Shown here: positions 4,909 to 39,564 of the stretch, piece by piece | How positions within the stretch are numbered: the first letter of the stretch is position 1 | Layout: every line of letters begins with the position of its first letter | NCBI GenBank assembly: GCA_028276365.1 | Contig: JAPYWL010000005.1 | Span: 1-56,927 of the forward strand | Reading direction: 5' to 3' | DNA length: 56,927 bases | From: Deltaproteobacteria bacterium | GTDB taxonomy: Bacteria > DRYD01 | Program-made: the position numbers and the translations under genes | Notes under the pieces: model-generated | Databases searched by the model: none | Told to the model about the DNA's origin: nothing | Seen by the model: only the letters and a program-made list of their open reading frames with translations

Positions 4909-6573
4909 TTACCCATTTTCATCTATTAAAGCTACCTTCTTAATATATTCATAAAAATCAAAATCAGTTTTAACTTCTAATTCTTTATCCCTTAAATTTG
5001 TTAAAATTAAAGAAACTAAAATATTATATAAATTAACTAAATTTGGATTATCCTTTATTTTTTGATTCAAAAATTCTAAAACAAATTTTATCTTCTCAGG
5101 ATACTTAATAATAAAATTAGAAATATTGTAAAAAACAAAAACATAATTCCCTATAACCAAATTAATAAAAAATAAGACTTCTAAATCTTGTAAATCTGAT
5201 AAACTATACTTATTTAATATAACTAACTCCTTAGCTAATTTTTTGATATTTTCAAAATCATTATAAAATATTAAAAACTTTATAAGTACAACCAACAAAT
5301 CTTTATTTAAAATAATGTCTTTATAAAGATTATTTAAAAAATAATAAACTATCTCTTTGATTTGTTCTAAATTATCTTGATTTAGTAAATTTTTAAGTAT
5401 ATCTAAAGATCTATCCTTGATAATTGATAAATCTAAAATTTTATAATTATTCATAAAGATAGTATATATTACTTCATTTGATTTTAAGTTTAGAATACAA
5501 TTATTAAGTAGAATTTTTTGCTCTTCTGAATCTAAAAATACTAATAATTCTTTAATTAAAGTATAACTCAATTCAATATCATTTATTTTATTCAAATTAT
5601 TAACGATATTTTTTGATAATTCATAAATATCTATTAAATTTTTAGATTTAGCTAATTCTAAAATAATTACATAATTTTTTATTACTTCTAATTTTTTATT
5701 ATGTTCAATATCTTGAAAATTTTCAAATATCTTAGAATAAATTCTTAATATTAAAGATAAATTTTTTTTATTTTCTATTAATAGTTTAATAGATGGGAGA
5801 ATTTCAATTATCTTAGAAATTATTTTAGTTAAATTATCAGCTTTAGCAATAGCTTTATCAATAACTCCTAAAGCATCTACCCAAATAATATTAAAATCCC
5901 TTTGTATTAATAAACCAGTTAATAATTCAATTATTTTTTCTATTTTATCTTTTTTATTTAGTAATACAGCATATTTATCTACTATCCAAACTACCCTATA
6001 ATACTTTATGGCTTTAGATAAAAGAGTTTCCAACTCATCTAATCTTGAATTAATTTCTAAAAAATTAACCAATTTCTTAACATAATATATACCAGCATTA
6101 ATTTTGGACAATTTTTCTAAAAATAAATCACATATTTTTTCAAATACTACATTACTGACATTTTTTTCAACAAGATTTATTATAAAATCGTATAATCTAT
6201 CATAATTTTCTTCTTCTTTAAAAACTAATTCAATATAACTAATTAAATCTTCTCTTTTTAATATTCCCTCTAATCCATTATTAAATATAAATAATAAGTA
6301 ATGATAAACTATATCTATATCTTTAGAAAAATTAGAAAAATAATTTAAAACAACTTCATTTACTTTAAGTAAAACTTCTTTATCCAGATTATTCTGATTT
6401 AATAAAATTAATAAATATATTTTAGCAAAAGCATTTTTCTTATTTATTTGCTCATTAATAATATCTACAACTTTTAAAGGATTTTTTGAAAGTAATATAT
6501 TTATATTTATTTCATCTATTATATCTTTTTCTACTAAATTATCTACATTATTATCCATAATTTTCATAAGCAA
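4909..6573 (-). CDS. Hypothetical all-alpha (helical-repeat-like) protein, 554 aa
   Basis: Long uninterrupted ORF with a strong SD (AAAGGGGAG) 7 nt upstream of the ATG. No recognisable motif. Leu/Ile/Asn/Lys-rich. Confidence 0.5.
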   Translation of the reverse strand: MLMKIMDNNVDNLVEKDIIDEININILLSKNPLKVVDIINEQINKKNAFAKIYLLILLNQNNLDKEVLLKVNEVVLNYFSNFSKDIDIVYHYLLFIFNNGLEGILKREDLISYIELVFKEEENYDRLYDFIINLVEKNVSNVVFEKICDLFLEKLSKINAGIYYVKKLVNFLEINSRLDELETLLSKAIKYYRVVWIVDKYAVLLNKKDKIEKIIELLTGLLIQRDFNIIWVDALGVIDKAIAKADNLTKIISKIIEILPSIKLLIENKKNLSLILRIYSKIFENFQDIEHNKKLEVIKNYVIILELAKSKNLIDIYELSKNIVNNLNKINDIELSYTLIKELLVFLDSEEQKILLNNCILNLKSNEVIYTIFMNNYKILDLSIIKDRSLDILKNLLNQDNLEQIKEIVYYFLNNLYKDIILNKDLLVVLIKFLIFYNDFENIKKLAKELVILNKYSLSDLQDLEVLFFINLVIGNYVFVFYNISNFIIKYPEKIKFVLEFLNQKIKDNPNLVNLYNILVSLILTNLRDKELEVKTDFDFYEYIKKVALIDENG

Positions 6574-6577
6574 TATA

Positions 6578-6598
6578 CTCCCCTTTATAGAAGGGGAG
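6578..6598 (-). promoter_or_regulatory. 8-bp G/C-containing hairpin (CTCCCCTT-TATAG-AAGGGGAG) that contains the Shine-Dalgarno of the 4909..6573 ORF
   Basis: Perfect inverted repeat read directly from the sequence. On the minus strand the AAGGGGAG arm is the only SD-like sequence before the ATG at 6573. Confidence 0.4.
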
Positions 6599-6682
6599 CT
6601 TTTGTACTTTTACATAAGCATAGCTTTTTAGGTATCAGTAATACAACATAAAGCTTTTTAATAGCTTAACTTTAAAACACTC
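6591..6682 (+). repeat. Dispersed intergenic element, copy 1 (partner: 33972..34086 on the minus strand)
   Basis: 6607-6644 (CTTTTACATAAGCATAGCTTTTTAGGTATCAGTAATAC) matches the reverse complement of 34021-34058 at 32/38 positions by hand alignment. Weaker similarity continues on both sides (AAGGGGA; GCTTT..GCTTA..TTTAAA). Confidence 0.6.
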
Positions 6683-6762
6683 TAAATAAATTTATTGGTG
6701 CCTAATTTTCTATATGTCATAAACTTAATACCTATTAAGCCTTTACCGAGCCATACCTAAAG

Positions 6763-11760: not shown

Positions 11761-11848
11761 GGATTTTTTTATTTTTTTTACCTAATTATTATATTGGAGT
11801 AAATATACATCCTTCCTTAGTTTAGCTTACACATAGGGGAATTGAAAG
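11761..11848 (+). repeat. Leader-like T-rich block (11761-11807) plus a solitary 29-nt CRISPR-type repeat GTTTAGCTTACACATAGGGGAATTGAAAG (11820-11848)
   Basis: Near-identical copy on the minus strand at 19902-19819. Similarity ends exactly after ATTGAAAG. The repeat length and 3' ATTGAAAG are typical of Cas6-type repeats. No second repeat follows downstream. Confidence 0.65.
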
Positions 11849-31876: not shown

Positions 31877-33523
31877 CTATCTTTGATTACTAATAAAAAT
31901 ATGCAAAACCTTAGGTAAAAAGTCAGCATTACTAAATGAAGCAGAAGTCATTAAAGAAGTATCATATTTAAATTGACTACTATTACCATTAACTTGAAGA
32001 TCACCGTCTATAGGATCACTTGTCCAAGCTGCACCATATAATGTAGGATTACCGTTGAAAACTAAGTCAGGAGCGCATAAAATAGCATTAACTACAGGAG
32101 TCCCACTAGAAGTAGCTGCTTGGGTACTGGCATATATCCTAAAAGCTCCTGGCTTAGATAACAAAGTATTATTATTAGTATTAGTAGTTCTTCCATCTGT
32201 ATCTACATTATTAACAGTTACATTACCACCTACAGAAAAACTGCCGTTTATATATAAATTAACTCCTGGTCTATTACCTAAAAACCTAAAATTAGTAACA
32301 TTATTACCTACAATATCAAAACTTGTTCTAAAATAAAAATCAGGATTCAAAACTGTTGTTGTTCCACTATTTCCTAAGTTCATATCAGATTTATTGGCTT
32401 GTATAAAAAGGGGTTGAGCATAAGAAGGAGCAGAAGCAGGATCTGTATAAATATTTCCAAAATAATCAAACTTAGCAGTTAATCCATAAGTATTTTGAAT
32501 ATAGTTATAAACAGCAAGGTAATCATTATAAGTACCTTCCCCAGATTTAGGTAACCTAACTTGAAAAACTAAACTATTATCCGTTTTACTAAAATCTCCT
32601 GATAAATAATAATTTCCTGGCTTTGTTAAGTAAATAGTACTACTATTATTAGAAGTATAAACTACGTTAGGCGAAAGTATTCTATTAACAGGCATGCTAA
32701 CTGCAGAATTACTACTATAAAAATCAGTAGGGAAAGGATCTACATAATCTCTTAAGTACTCAGGAGGTGGAGTATTAGAGATAATCTTATCGTTATTATT
32801 ATTAACCTTATTTCTTATAGTAGATGATAAGGAATTACTATATATAACAGCATCTGCAGAGCCACTACCTGTTATACTTTTAGCCCAAACCAAACTTAAA
32901 GCTTTATTTTTAATTATATTTAATAAATCTAAGTTTTTAGCTTGAACAGAATTATTTTGTTTATCAACATCCCAATTCAAAGTATTAAGTGAAACAACTT
33001 TTGGCATTATATTAGGATCATCTGTACCAAAAAATCCTGCATTATTATTTACTCCCACATTAATAGAATCAGTAGCAAAAAATAGGAAATCATTTAACCT
33101 CCATTCCCACACTTTAACAACAGATTTAAGAGAAACTATATTATTCCCCCTACTAACTGTTATACTAACATTCCTTAATCCCTTAACATTTCTATTAGGA
33201 ATTGGAGTAACCATAATAGATACATTTACATTATTCAAAGGAGAAAAGTTTTCACCAGTATAACTAGGGTTTAAATATAACTCAGCTAAGGTTTTATTAA
33301 AAGCACTCTTAGCAACATTAACTAATATATAATTTCTTTGAAAGCTTTGGGCCCCTAAATTACCATTATACCCTCTAAGTGCTAATAACAAAATCATAAA
33401 CAAAATAGTAAGAAAAATTAACACTATAATTAAAACAATAGCCTTCTGATATTTAATGTTTACACCTCTTACTTTTATCTCCTTTTTATTTATTTCCATA
33501 ATATTCCCCCTAACTTTAGACAT
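31877..33523 (-). CDS. Large PilX-N-like pilus-associated protein (hypothetical)
   Basis: Single N-terminal hydrophobic helix AIVLIIVLIFLTILFMILLLA followed by NKTLAELYLN, similar to PilX N-terminal domains. Asn/Ser/Thr-rich beta-rich remainder. First gene of a three-gene pilin operon. Confidence 0.45.
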   Translation of the reverse strand: MSKVRGNIMEINKKEIKVRGVNIKYQKAIVLIIVLIFLTILFMILLLALRGYNGNLGAQSFQRNYILVNVAKSAFNKTLAELYLNPSYTGENFSPLNNVNVSIMVTPIPNRNVKGLRNVSITVSRGNNIVSLKSVVKVWEWRLNDFLFFATDSINVGVNNNAGFFGTDDPNIMPKVVSLNTLNWDVDKQNNSVQAKNLDLLNIIKNKALSLVWAKSITGSGSADAVIYSNSLSSTIRNKVNNNNDKIISNTPPPEYLRDYVDPFPTDFYSSNSAVSMPVNRILSPNVVYTSNNSSTIYLTKPGNYYLSGDFSKTDNSLVFQVRLPKSGEGTYNDYLAVYNYIQNTYGLTAKFDYFGNIYTDPASAPSYAQPLFIQANKSDMNLGNSGTTTVLNPDFYFRTSFDIVGNNVTNFRFLGNRPGVNLYINGSFSVGGNVTVNNVDTDGRTTNTNNNTLLSKPGAFRIYASTQAATSSGTPVVNAILCAPDLVFNGNPTLYGAAWTSDPIDGDLQVNGNSSQFKYDTSLMTSASFSNADFLPKVLHIFISNQR

Positions 33524-33971
33524 TTTATTACTACCCTATATATAATTATAATTTTTTTTTTCAAAAAAACAAGCGTTTTAAATAGCTTTTATTGTAAAAT
33601 TTTTGTAAATTTTATTAACATAAATTTAAAATCTTACTTTTATATTAAAAACCCTAAAAAGAGTTTATTTTTTTTAGTTAATTTTTAAATTACAGCAAAT
33701 ATAATATACTAGTTTAACAAAAAGCCGCAAAAAGTATCGATTTTCTATAAAGTGGAGATGAATTGCTAAAAACTTAATAGATATTTGGAACAGAATAAAT
33801 ACTATAGAGCATAGAGAATTAGATAGTAATAAGCAGTCTGTTGTTTTATCACCTTTATTAAACTATAGGAATAGAAAATAAAAGAAAGGATTTCAATAGG
33901 ATTTTGACTTGTATTGTGTATGGGAGAGTTTATAAAAGGGATGAAAATATAAACTTATACTAAGTAAGGTT

Positions 33972-34086
33972 GGGTACGCTTTAAAACTAAGCCTTTAAAG
34001 CATGGTCTGATGGCTGGACCGTATTCCTTATACCTAAAAAGCTAAACTTATGTAAAGCTCACTTATCCCCTTAGGAGAATTAAAAG
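33972..34086 (-). repeat. Dispersed intergenic element, copy 2 (partner 6591..6682). On the plus strand it includes a degenerate CRISPR-repeat-like segment (34052-34086)
   Basis: See 6591..6682. The plus-strand sequence GTAAAGCTCACTTA[TCCCCT]TAGGAGAATTAAAAG matches the 11820-11848 repeat at about 22/29 positions if a 6-nt insertion is allowed. Confidence 0.5.
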
Positions 34087-34132
34087 CTAAAAATATAAAT
34101 TGAAATATAAAGATTAAGAAAAACAATAAAAA

Positions 34133-34531
34133 CTAATTAAAAAAAACAATAATAATAGAATTAGCAACAGTGATTTTTTTTTCATGAGAAATACTTACTT
34201 TAATTATAAAATCTTTTACTGATTTATTAAGCAAAATAGATAACTTATTTAAAACAGAATTACTATTAATAAAATGTATTTCGTTATTAGATATAGAAAT
34301 TAAATTAAAATTGACTTTAAATGAGATAGCTTTAGTAATAGCTTCTTTAGCAGCAAACCTACCTGCTAAAAACTCTACCTTCCTTCCATAATTAGATATT
34401 TCATTATATTTATTAATCTCATAATCACTTAAAATCCTTTTGATAAATTTCTGATTATAAATATGCTTAGAAATCCTGTTGTTATAGACTATATCTATTC
34501 CTGTATTGATAAAAATTTTATCATAAGACAT
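34133..34531 (-). CDS. acpS: Holo-[acyl-carrier-protein] synthase
   Basis: GIDIV near the N-terminus, FAAKEAITKA, and SISHEK near the C-terminus. Confidence 0.8.
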   Translation of the reverse strand: MSYDKIFINTGIDIVYNNRISKHIYNQKFIKRILSDYEINKYNEISNYGRKVEFLAGRFAAKEAITKAISFKVNFNLISISNNEIHFINSNSVLNKLSILLNKSVKDFIIKVSISHEKKITVANSIIIVFFN

Positions 34532-36240: not shown

Positions 36241-36519
36241 TAATTATCCCCCCTTTAACTTATCCCTATTATATATTTTAAACAAAAATTAAAAAATCCC
36301 CTAAAATATAAAAAAAATTAACACTTTTTTTACATACTAATAAATGTGCTTACTATATTATTTTACAGCTTACAATAATTACGAATTCATCCACTATCCC
36401 CTCTTTAAAAACTTAACTTCAGAATCCCATTCCAACCCTAGATCCCTTTATTACCTGGGCTAAACATAACTACAGCCAAAATAATTTTTGTTAAAACAAT
36501 AATTATACAGTAATTGGTT

Positions 36520-37713: not shown

Positions 37714-39564
37714 CTAATTCACCTCCATTAATTTTATACCCAATTCTTTTAATTGGCTAAGATCAACTTCAGAAGGAGCTTTAGTAAGTAAACAAGTACC
37801 ACTTTGGGTCTTAGGAAATGCAATAACTTCCCTTATACTATTATAACCTAAAAGTAAAGCAATAATTCTATCAATCCCAAGAGCTATTCCCCCATGAGGA
37901 GGAACCCCATATTTAAAAGCTTCTAATAAAAACCCAAACTTCCTATTAGCATCCTCTTCATTTATACCTATTATTTCAAATATTATCTTTTGGAACTTAA
38001 TATCAGTTATTCTTATACTACCACTAGCAATCTCTACCCCATTTAATACTAAATCATAAGCTAAAGATCTAATAGATAAAACTTCTTTAACAAATTCATC
38101 ATCATAAATTATATTAGGATTTTTCTTTAATTTTTCATATATCATATATACCTTATCTTTGTCCTCTTCTAATACATTAGTAAATGGGTGATGTTCAGGA
38201 GATATTTTCCTTATTAATTTATTTCCTACTTTTTCTTCCTCTACTTTAAAAAGTGGAAAATTATCAACCCAAAGAAAATAAAAATCCTTAACCGGTTTCA
38301 ATACCTTATTCTCTATTAAATAATTCTTTATTAAAATTAACTCATTTAAATAATTTTTAGAAGAAATAACAAAAACTATATAATCCCCATTATAAAACTG
38401 ATTTTCATTTCTTAAATAATTATCTACTTCATTTATATCAACAAACTTAACTAAGCTTCCCTTAAAAAAGGATTCTCCAGAATTACTAGAAATTAAATAT
38501 AAAAATTTTAAATTATTTTGCCTTAAAAATTCATTTAATTTATCTAATTCTTTACGAGTTAAAACCAAATTTTTAAAAAATATATAATAAGCTTGATTAA
38601 TATCAAAATCTTCATCATTCAAATTTATCTTTATTGAATTGTTCCATTTTTTTACAGGATAATTAAATCTCAAATCAGGTTTATCTGAATTAAAATGTTT
38701 TATAGCATAATTATAATCAATAACTTCAAAAGGAATACTAATTTCAATCCCTAAATTATTAAGTACATAATCTAAAAGATTTTCAATTAACAAGAAAATA
38801 TCTTTTTTAGAAATAAAAGACATTTCAATATCAACTTGAGTAAACTCTGGTTGTCTATCAGCTCTTAAATCTTCATCTCTTAAACATTTTGCTATTTGAA
38901 AATACCTATCTATACCAGCTACCATTAAAATTTGCTTAAAAAGCTGAGGAGACTGCGGTAAAGCATAAAACTTACCTGGCTGTAACCTAGAAGGTACTAA
39001 AAAATCCCGAGCACCCTCAGGAGTAGGTTTAGCTAATAATGGAGTCTCTATTTCTAAAAAATCCTCATTATCCATAAAATCCCTTATATATTTTATTATC
39101 TTATGTCTAAAATACATATTTTTAAACATCTGTAATCTTCTTAAATCTAAATACCTATACTTTAATCTAGTAGCCTCATCAATTTTTAAATCCCTAATAT
39201 CTTTATAATCCTCATTAATCATAAAAGGTAAAGCTTCACTTTTAGAAAGAATCTTAATCTCCTTAGCAATAACCTCAAAATTTCCCGTAGCTATATTAGG
39301 ATTAATATTTTCAATTGGTCTTTCCTTAACAATACCCACAACTTCTAAAACATCCTCTAAAGATAATTTATTTATCTTTAATTCACTAGACATCACTACT
39401 TGTACTATTCCCGTTCTATCCCTTAAATCTACAAATAAAATCCCTCCCATATCTCTAAATCTATGAACCCAACCATAAATTTTTACTTCCTTATTAACAT
39501 ATTTTTCATTTATCTTACCACACCATACCCTATCTTTATAAGTATAATCAATTTGATTAATCAT
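37714..39564 (-). CDS. aspS: Aspartate--tRNA ligase (bacterial type)
   Basis: RDRTGIVQVV, class II motifs FYALPQSPQLFKQ, DRQPEFTQVD and GGIALGIDRI. Confidence 0.97.
   Translation of the reverse strand: MINQIDYTYKDRVWCGKINEKYVNKEVKIYGWVHRFRDMGGILFVDLRDRTGIVQVVMSSELKINKLSLEDVLEVVGIVKERPIENINPNIATGNFEVIAKEIKILSKSEALPFMINEDYKDIRDLKIDEATRLKYRYLDLRRLQMFKNMYFRHKIIKYIRDFMDNEDFLEIETPLLAKPTPEGARDFLVPSRLQPGKFYALPQSPQLFKQILMVAGIDRYFQIAKCLRDEDLRADRQPEFTQVDIEMSFISKKDIFLLIENLLDYVLNNLGIEISIPFEVIDYNYAIKHFNSDKPDLRFNYPVKKWNNSIKINLNDEDFDINQAYYIFFKNLVLTRKELDKLNEFLRQNNLKFLYLISSNSGESFFKGSLVKFVDINEVDNYLRNENQFYNGDYIVFVISSKNYLNELILIKNYLIENKVLKPVKDFYFLWVDNFPLFKVEEEKVGNKLIRKISPEHHPFTNVLEEDKDKVYMIYEKLKKNPNIIYDDEFVKEVLSIRSLAYDLVLNGVEIASGSIRITDIKFQKIIFEIIGINEEDANRKFGFLLEAFKYGVPPHGGIALGIDRIIALLLGYNSIREVIAFPKTQSGTCLLTKAPSEVDLSQLKELGIKLMEVN

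Follow-up and report, generated by a model that had tools for sequence, protein, structure and literature searches.

A probable nested mobile-element scar between acpS and a pilin-like gene: a gene-less IS200/IS605-type element within an orphan CRISPR leader-repeat cassette

We have analyzed the 610-nt gap that separates acpS from a pilin-like gene in a window of 56,927 nt, which is the whole stretch of DNA studied here (positions 1 to 56,927 of contig JAPYWL010000005.1, assembly GCA_028276365.1, from a bacterium classified among the Deltaproteobacteria). The gap is probably a nested mobile-element scar, in which a small gene-less insertion sequence (mini-IS) sits inside an orphan CRISPR leader-repeat cassette, the two together having enlarged a small ancestral gap. 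Both nested elements are of known kinds, and there is no evidence that the gap regulates the pilin operon. The gap runs from 33524 to 34132, between the start of the pilin-like gene and the acpS stop, and the boundaries that a preliminary description had given to it were verified. That description had offered three explanations: a decayed CRISPR array, a structured 5' leader or an ncRNA by which the pilin operon would be controlled, and the scar of a mobile element. The last is the one that the present results bear out, with 33719-34062 being a decayed mini IS200/IS605-type element and its flanks a stray cassette. The features are summarized in Table 1.

Table 1. Features of the acpS-pilin gap in order of position, and near-intact copies of the mini-IS elsewhere in the same genome
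Feature	Position	Strand	Evidence
Pilin-like gene, 548 aa	ATG at 33523	minus	
Ancestral part of the gap, probably with the pilin-operon promoter	33538..33618	minus	Sole block of the gap aligning with same-genus G001 and G002
CRISPR leader-like block	33650..33711	plus	Similarity to 11768-11807; also in metagenome strain
GTTTAAC, first 7 nt of split repeat (consensus GTTTAGC)	33712..33718	plus	Correct distance past leader block
Target-adjacent motif TTTAAC	33713-33718	plus	
Mini-IS left end: 16-nt leader, degenerate hairpin (33736-33757), conserved GAGATGAATTGC	33719..33766	plus	
Mini-IS interior, older diverged subfamily type	33767..33943	plus	Blocks in common with C124, C85, C6 and C33
Omega-RNA scaffold remnant (the G+C-richer island), right-end hairpin deleted	33944..34062	plus	nhmmer, blastn, CM
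Split repeat, 3' 24 nt, TTATCCCCTTAGGAGAATTAAAAG; solo-repeat variant TTACCCCTAAGGGAATTAAAAG	34063..34086	plus	
A-rich spacer up to acpS stop	34087..34132	.	Sequence read and metagenome comparison
acpS	stop at 34133	minus	
Near-intact mini-IS copies (about 250 nt, n=4)	C16:31403-31655; C28:3620-3866; C58:15834-16061; C73:6991-7238		

The genome from which the window comes (G000; 1.59 Mb in 124 contigs, 87% complete) has a mean G+C content of 24%. A G+C-enriched island had been reported within the gap, and it is real: the G+C content is 35-36% at 33950-34099, versus 12-21% at 33550-33749 and 17-20% at 34050-34249. This island is the remainder of a stem-rich scaffold in a 24% G+C genome. As had also been reported, it shares a repeat with the element at 6591-6682 (36 nt at 6609-6644, 89% complementary, blastn E 1e-6), and the small stem described on the minus strand is present at 34002-34022, though not conserved in other copies of the element. 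The statement that no ORF exceeds about 12 codons was inexact, as the gap holds one start-codon ORF of at least 30 aa (a 30-aa TTG frame at 34034-34126 on the minus strand) and its longest stop-to-stop frames reach 62 aa, but its substance stands: no frame in the gap shows gene-like signs and none is TnpB-like. Rfam searches at gathering thresholds gave a tRNA, outside the gap, as the sole match in the window; with the limit raised to E 10 there were still zero matches over 33400-34250, and eight other copies of the element gave tRNA alone. The island folds no better than shuffled sequences on either strand (z -0.74 plus, -0.78 minus).

The mini-IS was delimited with an nhmmer profile built from the four near-intact copies and searched against the whole genome. 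In the window this profile matches 33965-34044 (E 3.8e-8 genome-wide), 33726-33780 (E 0.0077 genome-wide), 6567-6684 and 36403-36460. At the left end of the copy in the gap, TTCTATAAAGTGGAGATGAATTGC at 33743-33766 is identical to the left-end core of the intact copies at 22 of 24 positions; the left hairpin is matched by the CM at 33737-33756 with 5.5 bits, and its 5' arm is mutated (5 mismatches in 22). The interior contains a promoter-like pair, TTGACT ... TATAAA, with an over-long spacer of 20-21 nt, and a promoter scan reported no site there. No start-codon ORF of at least 30 aa lies wholly within 33719-34062, and tblastn with TnpB gave at best E 0.14, with no TnpB-like coding remnant in the interior. 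The scaffold is 81% identical to that of copy C33 over 116 nt (blastn E 2e-22). With filters off, a CM built from the intact copies matches 33944-34062 at 11.2 bits (E 0.011, a rough value owing to the short calibration); the match ends exactly at 34062, where 10 nt replace 36 model positions that include the right-end hairpin. The default filters of the CM search left the island undetected, since most of the score comes from the hairpin, which is absent here. Most of the scaffold pairing is also lost. From the mutated left hairpin, the missing right hairpin, the eroded stems and the spoiled promoter spacing we infer that this copy is dead, having lost both its mobility and a working guide RNA. 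A further CM match in the window, at 37879-38008 on the minus strand (20.8 bits, E 0.008), was rejected as a false positive inside a coding region resembling a class II aminoacyl-tRNA synthetase.

The family is represented by about 19 loci in the 1.6-Mb genome, 15 of them found by nhmmer at E<0.01 and 4 by blastn only. The more diverged copies C33, C6, C85 and C124 have additional interior blocks in common with the window copy; when the window element was used as a single-sequence nhmmer query, only 4 other matches were found, on three contigs. Intact copies start with a 22-nt palindrome, CTCCACCTTCTATAAGGT(T/G)GAG, followed by ATGAATTGC, and end with the same palindrome followed by TAGTTCAC. 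The palindrome is found at both ends in C16 and C58, and its right-end version is perfect in C16, C28 and C4. Subterminal hairpins are present at the left and right ends of the family and terminal inverted repeats are absent. TTTAAC or TTAAAC is found 16-17 nt 5' of the left hairpin in the window copy, in C16, C4 and C124, and in seven copies from a distant complete genome, G019. The flanks past the right end (...GTAGTTCAC) are unrelated among copies, and there is no target-site duplication. Copies occupy unrelated sites and are found in several phyla.

The intact copies look functional on three counts: their promoters, their pairing stems and the folding scores of two copies. The promoter of C58, TTGACA-17-TATAGT, matches the consensus at 11 of 12 positions. 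An exact-pattern scan for the right end revealed gene-less copies, each about 200 nt long, in Hydrogenobacter sp. RSW1 and an Aquificaceae MAG and, in a Thermocrinis sp., this right end at the edge of a contig; at the same position as in G000, the Hydrogenobacter copy has TTGACA-17-TATAGT (11/12) and the Aquificaceae copy TTGACG-17-TATACT (10/12). Compared by eye in 9 sequences from 4 lineages, the stems P1 and P2 and the right-end hairpin appear to keep their pairing through double changes: GUCCC/GGGAC versus GCUUAGC/GCUAAGC in P1; GGGUUG/CGACCC versus GGGCUG/CGGCCC and GGGUAG/CUACCC in P2 (U-A to C-G, U-G to A-U); and ACC/GGU versus CAC/GUG in the terminal hairpin. Against shuffled sequences the fold z-scores are -2.4 for C16 and -5.0 for the Aquificaceae copy, whereas the Hydrogenobacter copy (-0.8) is not better than its shuffles.

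Several other members of the family were noted in passing. The window itself holds a decayed copy at 6570-6696 on the minus strand (CM 28.9 bits, nhmmer E 5.9e-6), whose right-end hairpin, CTCCCCTTCTATAAAGGGGAG, provides a Shine-Dalgarno-like AAGGGGAG just 5' of the gene starting at 6573; C16:5907-6035 is arranged almost identically and likewise has ATGAAAATTATGG downstream. A third window copy, at 36346-36468 on the minus strand, is more eroded (nhmmer E 8.6e-5, CM 17.8 bits); it retains a promoter-like TTAACA...TGTAGT, stem P2 and TTAAG...TTTAAAG, and sits in the gap 5' of a FliF-like gene. The intact C16 element (L003 1360-1612) lies between a gene for an ImmA/IrrE-like HTH-peptidase and a 173-aa gene, and the arm of its right-end hairpin, AAGGTGGAG, is 12 nt 5' of the ATG of the latter, so that the mini-IS may supply the ribosome-binding site of this gene. 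The intact C58 element (L009 1381-1608) is immediately 5' of a 266-aa ORF that resembles only the C-terminal part of HypF; truncation or splitting of this gene is possible. At C4:4421-4470 (minus strand) and in G019 (L047, about 1495-1540) there are minimal elements, about 47 nt long, in which TTTAAC and the 16-nt left leader are joined by a single hairpin and the tail of the right end, TAGTT(T/C)AC; they appear to be the smallest unit that is still potentially movable.

The relationship to tnpB-bearing elements is provided by G019, which has nine copies of the right-end hairpin. Eight of these are downstream of tnpB, and at the two loci inspected the tnpB ORFs are 381 and 392 aa long. The hairpin starts about 80 nt past the tnpB stop and the element ends 109 nt past it. 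An inspected tnpB product matches OrfB_IS605 (4.9e-26), the Cas12f1-like TNB domain (6.4e-24) and HTH_OrfB_IS605 (1.1e-17). The left ends of the G019 elements consist of TTTAAC, AATATCTAGCAAGAAG, a hairpin and GGGGATGAATTGC, and in two copies fragments of Y1 TnpA (Y1_Tnp; 28 and 25 bits) are present between the left end and tnpB. Since the same ends surround tnpB and these Y1 fragments, the family is of the IS605 type. The only intact Y1 TnpA of G019 has no family ends within 1.5 kb of it. The omega RNA is the guide of TnpB, and the gene-less scaffold can be aligned with the 109 nt that lead from the tnpB stop to the right end in G019, sharing with this region stem P2 (GGGTTGGAACGACCC vs GGGTAGGGACTACCC) and the terminal hairpin. 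Neither TnpA (PF01797) nor TnpB was found in the 87% complete assembly of G000, where a weak TNB match on C124 (19.7 bits) is under the cut-off. Multi-copy IS elements often remain unassembled. The TnpB loci of the same-family genomes G001, G003 and G009 have neither of the family ends.

PATE-like elements, which are gene-less IS200/IS605 elements encoding omega RNAs, have been described in Geobacillus stearothermophilus (PMC10055086). Judged from its sequences, the present family is a PATE-like gene-less IS200/IS605 element that encodes a putative TnpB omega RNA. It has no protein gene, its subterminal hairpins match the ends of tnpB-bearing elements, a conserved motif (TTTAAC) precedes its left end, there is no target duplication, an omega-RNA scaffold lies at its right end and there are many copies per genome. 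It differs in that intact copies have their own near-consensus promoter, that the assembly yielded neither a cognate TnpA nor a cognate TnpB, and that the family spans the 24% G+C lineage, the Aquificales and G019; the window copy differs further in being dead, with its left hairpin mutated and its right hairpin deleted. To IS605/IS1341-type elements with tnpB, such as ISDra2 and IS608, the likeness lies in ends homologous to those around the G019 tnpB with its OrfB_IS605 and TNB domains, in the Y1 TnpA remnants of G019 copies and in the target-adjacent motif at the left junction. In contrast to these elements the 344-nt window element has no tnpA, no tnpB and no coding remnant.

The sequences on either side of the mini-IS belong to a different kind of element. 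The genome has real CRISPR arrays with the repeat GTTTAGCTTACCCATAGGGGAATTGAAAG. Solo leader-plus-repeat cassettes occur in addition, numbering about 25, and the variant ...CCCCTAAGGGAATTAAAAG is found in some of them. Positions 33664-33703 are 83% identical to the leader block at 11768-11807 (family D20). In the GTTTAAC that follows, the last six bases, TTTAAC, double as target-adjacent motif for the mini-IS. The unit already pointed out in the preliminary description, which resembles the repeat and ends at 34086, does beat shuffled sequences: against the CRISPR repeat variants of the genome it attains semiglobal scores of 10-16, which 0-1.3% of 300 dinucleotide shuffles reach, and for the solo-repeat variant none of 300 does so. 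Compared with the last 22 nt (3' end) of the repeat variant, the 34063..34086 segment scores 16, again reached by 0/300 shuffles. The look-alikes said to end at about 33878 and 33947 do not hold up. Their scores of 4-8 and 1-3 fall inside the range of the shuffles (mean 5-6, 95th percentile 8-9), so there is neither a periodicity of about 69 nt nor an array.

A loose regular expression for the leader core was abandoned because it gave about 75 chance matches genome-wide, and it was replaced by an HMM of the cassette. On the plus strand of the gap as it is, this HMM matches the leader at 33663-33703 (9.6 bits, E 0.83) and the repeat part at 34066-34089 (6.7 bits, E 6.8); the two hits are co-linear and neither is individually significant genome-wide. 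When 33719-34062 is removed in silico they merge into a single match over HMM positions 28-110 with 28.7 bits and E 2.1e-6 at genome scale, in a splice test that was devised after the similarity had been seen. The best of 308 junction variants reaches 31.7 bits. Matches to non-cassette sequence elsewhere in the genome do not exceed 13 bits, and the two clean cassettes in the window score about 88 bits versus the 28.7 bits of the rejoined one. Since the rejoined flanks make up one cassette, the mini-IS appears to have entered an orphan repeat on the 3' side of TTTAAC. Reconstructed in this way, the repeat reads GTTTAAC|TTATCCCCTTAGGAGAATTAAAAG; its agreement with the variant is 25 of 29 positions, with two insertions of one base each. 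Where precisely the junction lies is open to argument, because GTAAAGCT, just before 34063, also resembles the repeat start at 6 of 8 positions; the GTAAAG before the junction is found as well in mini-IS copies far from any repeat. Like the other orphan cassettes, the one in the gap has a leader-like block and, at the proper distance from it, a repeat-like unit of 29 nt, has no spacer, and lies just past a gene stop, pointing back into the gene; unlike them it is interrupted by a transposon, and it is more diverged. None of the other mini-IS copies in the genome is flanked by cassette-like sequence, so that no general association of the two elements is seen.

Comparison with relatives shows how little of the gap is conserved. 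In two genomes of the same genus the acpS-to-pilin gap is 173 nt (G002) and 390 nt, the latter with unrelated filler (G001), and the ancestral part given in Table 1 is all that the gaps have in common, with 27-39 of 28-44 positions identical per block; it aligns with the metagenome strain too. On its minus strand there is a promoter-like site, TTAATA-16-TACAAT at 33618-33591, which is a consensus match only. Beyond the conserved block a global alignment with G001 was uninformative. The filler of G001 comprises about 230 nt (L064, about 1660-1890), and its being different from the insert of the window implies that this intergenic site was struck independently.

The leader-like block is retained in a metagenome contig that is 95-96% identical to the window along the 1.8 kb to either side. 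This contig does not have 33713-34070, that is TTTAAC, the mini-IS and TTATCCCC, nor a further 46 nt, and what remains, TTAGGATAATAAAAAAC, directly adjoins the acpS stop codon. The island is thus apparently dispensable within a species-level population. The first 15 nt of the repeat are gone in this allele as well and it is not a clean empty site, which is most simply explained by a secondary deletion; possibly it represents an older state. The 46-nt difference is aligned at 34081-34126, between the direct repeats AAAAGCTAA and AAAAACTAA, and beside the acpS stop it looks like a slippage-type deletion or duplication.

These observations suggest the following history. An ancestral intergenic region of about 170-200 nt, holding the pilin promoter, would have been widened by two nested insertions. 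A spacer-less cassette, consisting of the leader and one repeat, would have landed just past the acpS stop, pointing back into acpS. A gene-less mini-IS would then have entered immediately 3' of TTTAAC inside the repeat, which may have read GTTTAACTTATCCCC...AAAAG (GTTTAACTTATCCCCTTAGGAGAATTAAAAG) before the insertion and would have been split into GTTTAAC (33712-33718) and TTATCCCC...AAAAG (34063-34086). Intact copies of the element are built from a hairpin at the left end, a sigma-70 promoter of their own, a structured scaffold (about 150 nt, with homology to the post-tnpB region, or omega RNA, of full-length relatives) and a hairpin at the right end. By analogy with the mechanism of the IS200/IS605 family, copying of the element would require a Y1 TnpA acting in trans on both hairpins. 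The remnant in the gap is probably inert.

Other readings of the gap can be weighed against this one. It is rather unlikely that the mini-IS lies there alone, with 34063-34086 as its mutated right-end hairpin and the leader-like block as a chance match of AT-rich DNA. The segment does occupy the position expected for that hairpin, the shortened right end of C85, CCTTATAGGGTAGTTTGC, resembles CCTTAGGAGAATTAAAAG, and the leader block taken by itself (E 0.83), like the loose motif for it, is within the reach of chance. However, the joined flanks far outscore any non-cassette match elsewhere, GTTTAAC is at the right distance from the leader block, the segment resembles the 3' end of the repeat variant more closely than any of its shuffles, and the CM ends the element at 34062; the other diverged copies, C85 excepted, diverge right past GTAAAG and have no such unit. 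That the gap is a decayed CRISPR array of several units deserves almost no credence, even though active-looking arrays with the same repeat are present in the genome. One repeat-derived unit, together with a leader-like block, is genuine and split by the insertion, and to this extent the earlier suggestion was sound. The gap does not hold the two or more regularly spaced repeats with unique spacers by which an array is defined: the other two proposed units score within the range of shuffled sequences, nhmmer at E up to 10 found no further repeat in the gap, and what lies between the two halves of the repeat has its homologues in a transposon family, not among spacers.

Two readings would give the gap a function as RNA. 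Domestication as a plus-strand sRNA, either antisense to the 3' end of acpS or acting in trans as an orphan omega RNA for a TnpB encoded elsewhere, is very unlikely. The promoters of intact family members are strong, the hairpin at 34002-34022 is retained, trans-acting PATE omega RNAs have been proposed (PMC10055086) and a TnpB may have been missed in the incomplete genome; these points are set against a promoter with a 20-21 nt spacer that the promoter scan did not report, the loss of the long-range stem and of the right-end hairpin, the plus-strand fold score of -0.74, the absence of the segment from a 95-96% identical strain and the failure to find any TnpB in G000. A long structured 5' leader or riboswitch-like control of the pilin operon is highly improbable, although the gap is directly 5' of the pilin-like operon and unusually long for a compact genome. 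The island is missing from all three relatives examined, and the conserved block with the promoter (33538-33618) separates it from the gene; the element itself faces away from the operon, the minus-strand fold of the island (z -0.78) is unremarkable, and even at E up to 10 there is no Rfam match. The preliminary idea of a functional RNA thus finds no Rfam family, no conservation of the island and, in two of three cases, repeat-like units that score no better than shuffled controls. As both elements are missing from close relatives, the nested insertion is better seen as an ordinary scar than as a new regulator of pilin genes, and it probably has no effect on the pilin operon.

The insertion of the mini-IS into a CRISPR repeat may not have been accidental. 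The target motif TTTAAC is one base off the CRISPR repeat start GTTTAGC, and in an omega RNA made from such a copy the remainder of the repeat would serve as guide, so the mini-IS/TnpB family could home to CRISPR repeats or cleave them. We regard this as a long shot; if true, repeat homing would be an interaction of transposon versus CRISPR. The nesting in an orphan repeat is a curiosity, which would give the order of arrival of two small elements. For the annotation of the window, the result removes a candidate novel regulatory RNA and a decayed CRISPR array from consideration, and explains the oddities at 33950-34090, 6570-6696 and 36346-36468 as copies of one transposon family. The family, recognizable by its TTTAAC motif, its pair of hairpins, its internal promoter and its scaffold, is common to this low-G+C lineage and the Aquificales, and its definition should aid the annotation of these genomes. 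With it comes a further TnpB/omega-RNA system, compact and probably thermophilic, that has a candidate target-adjacent motif.
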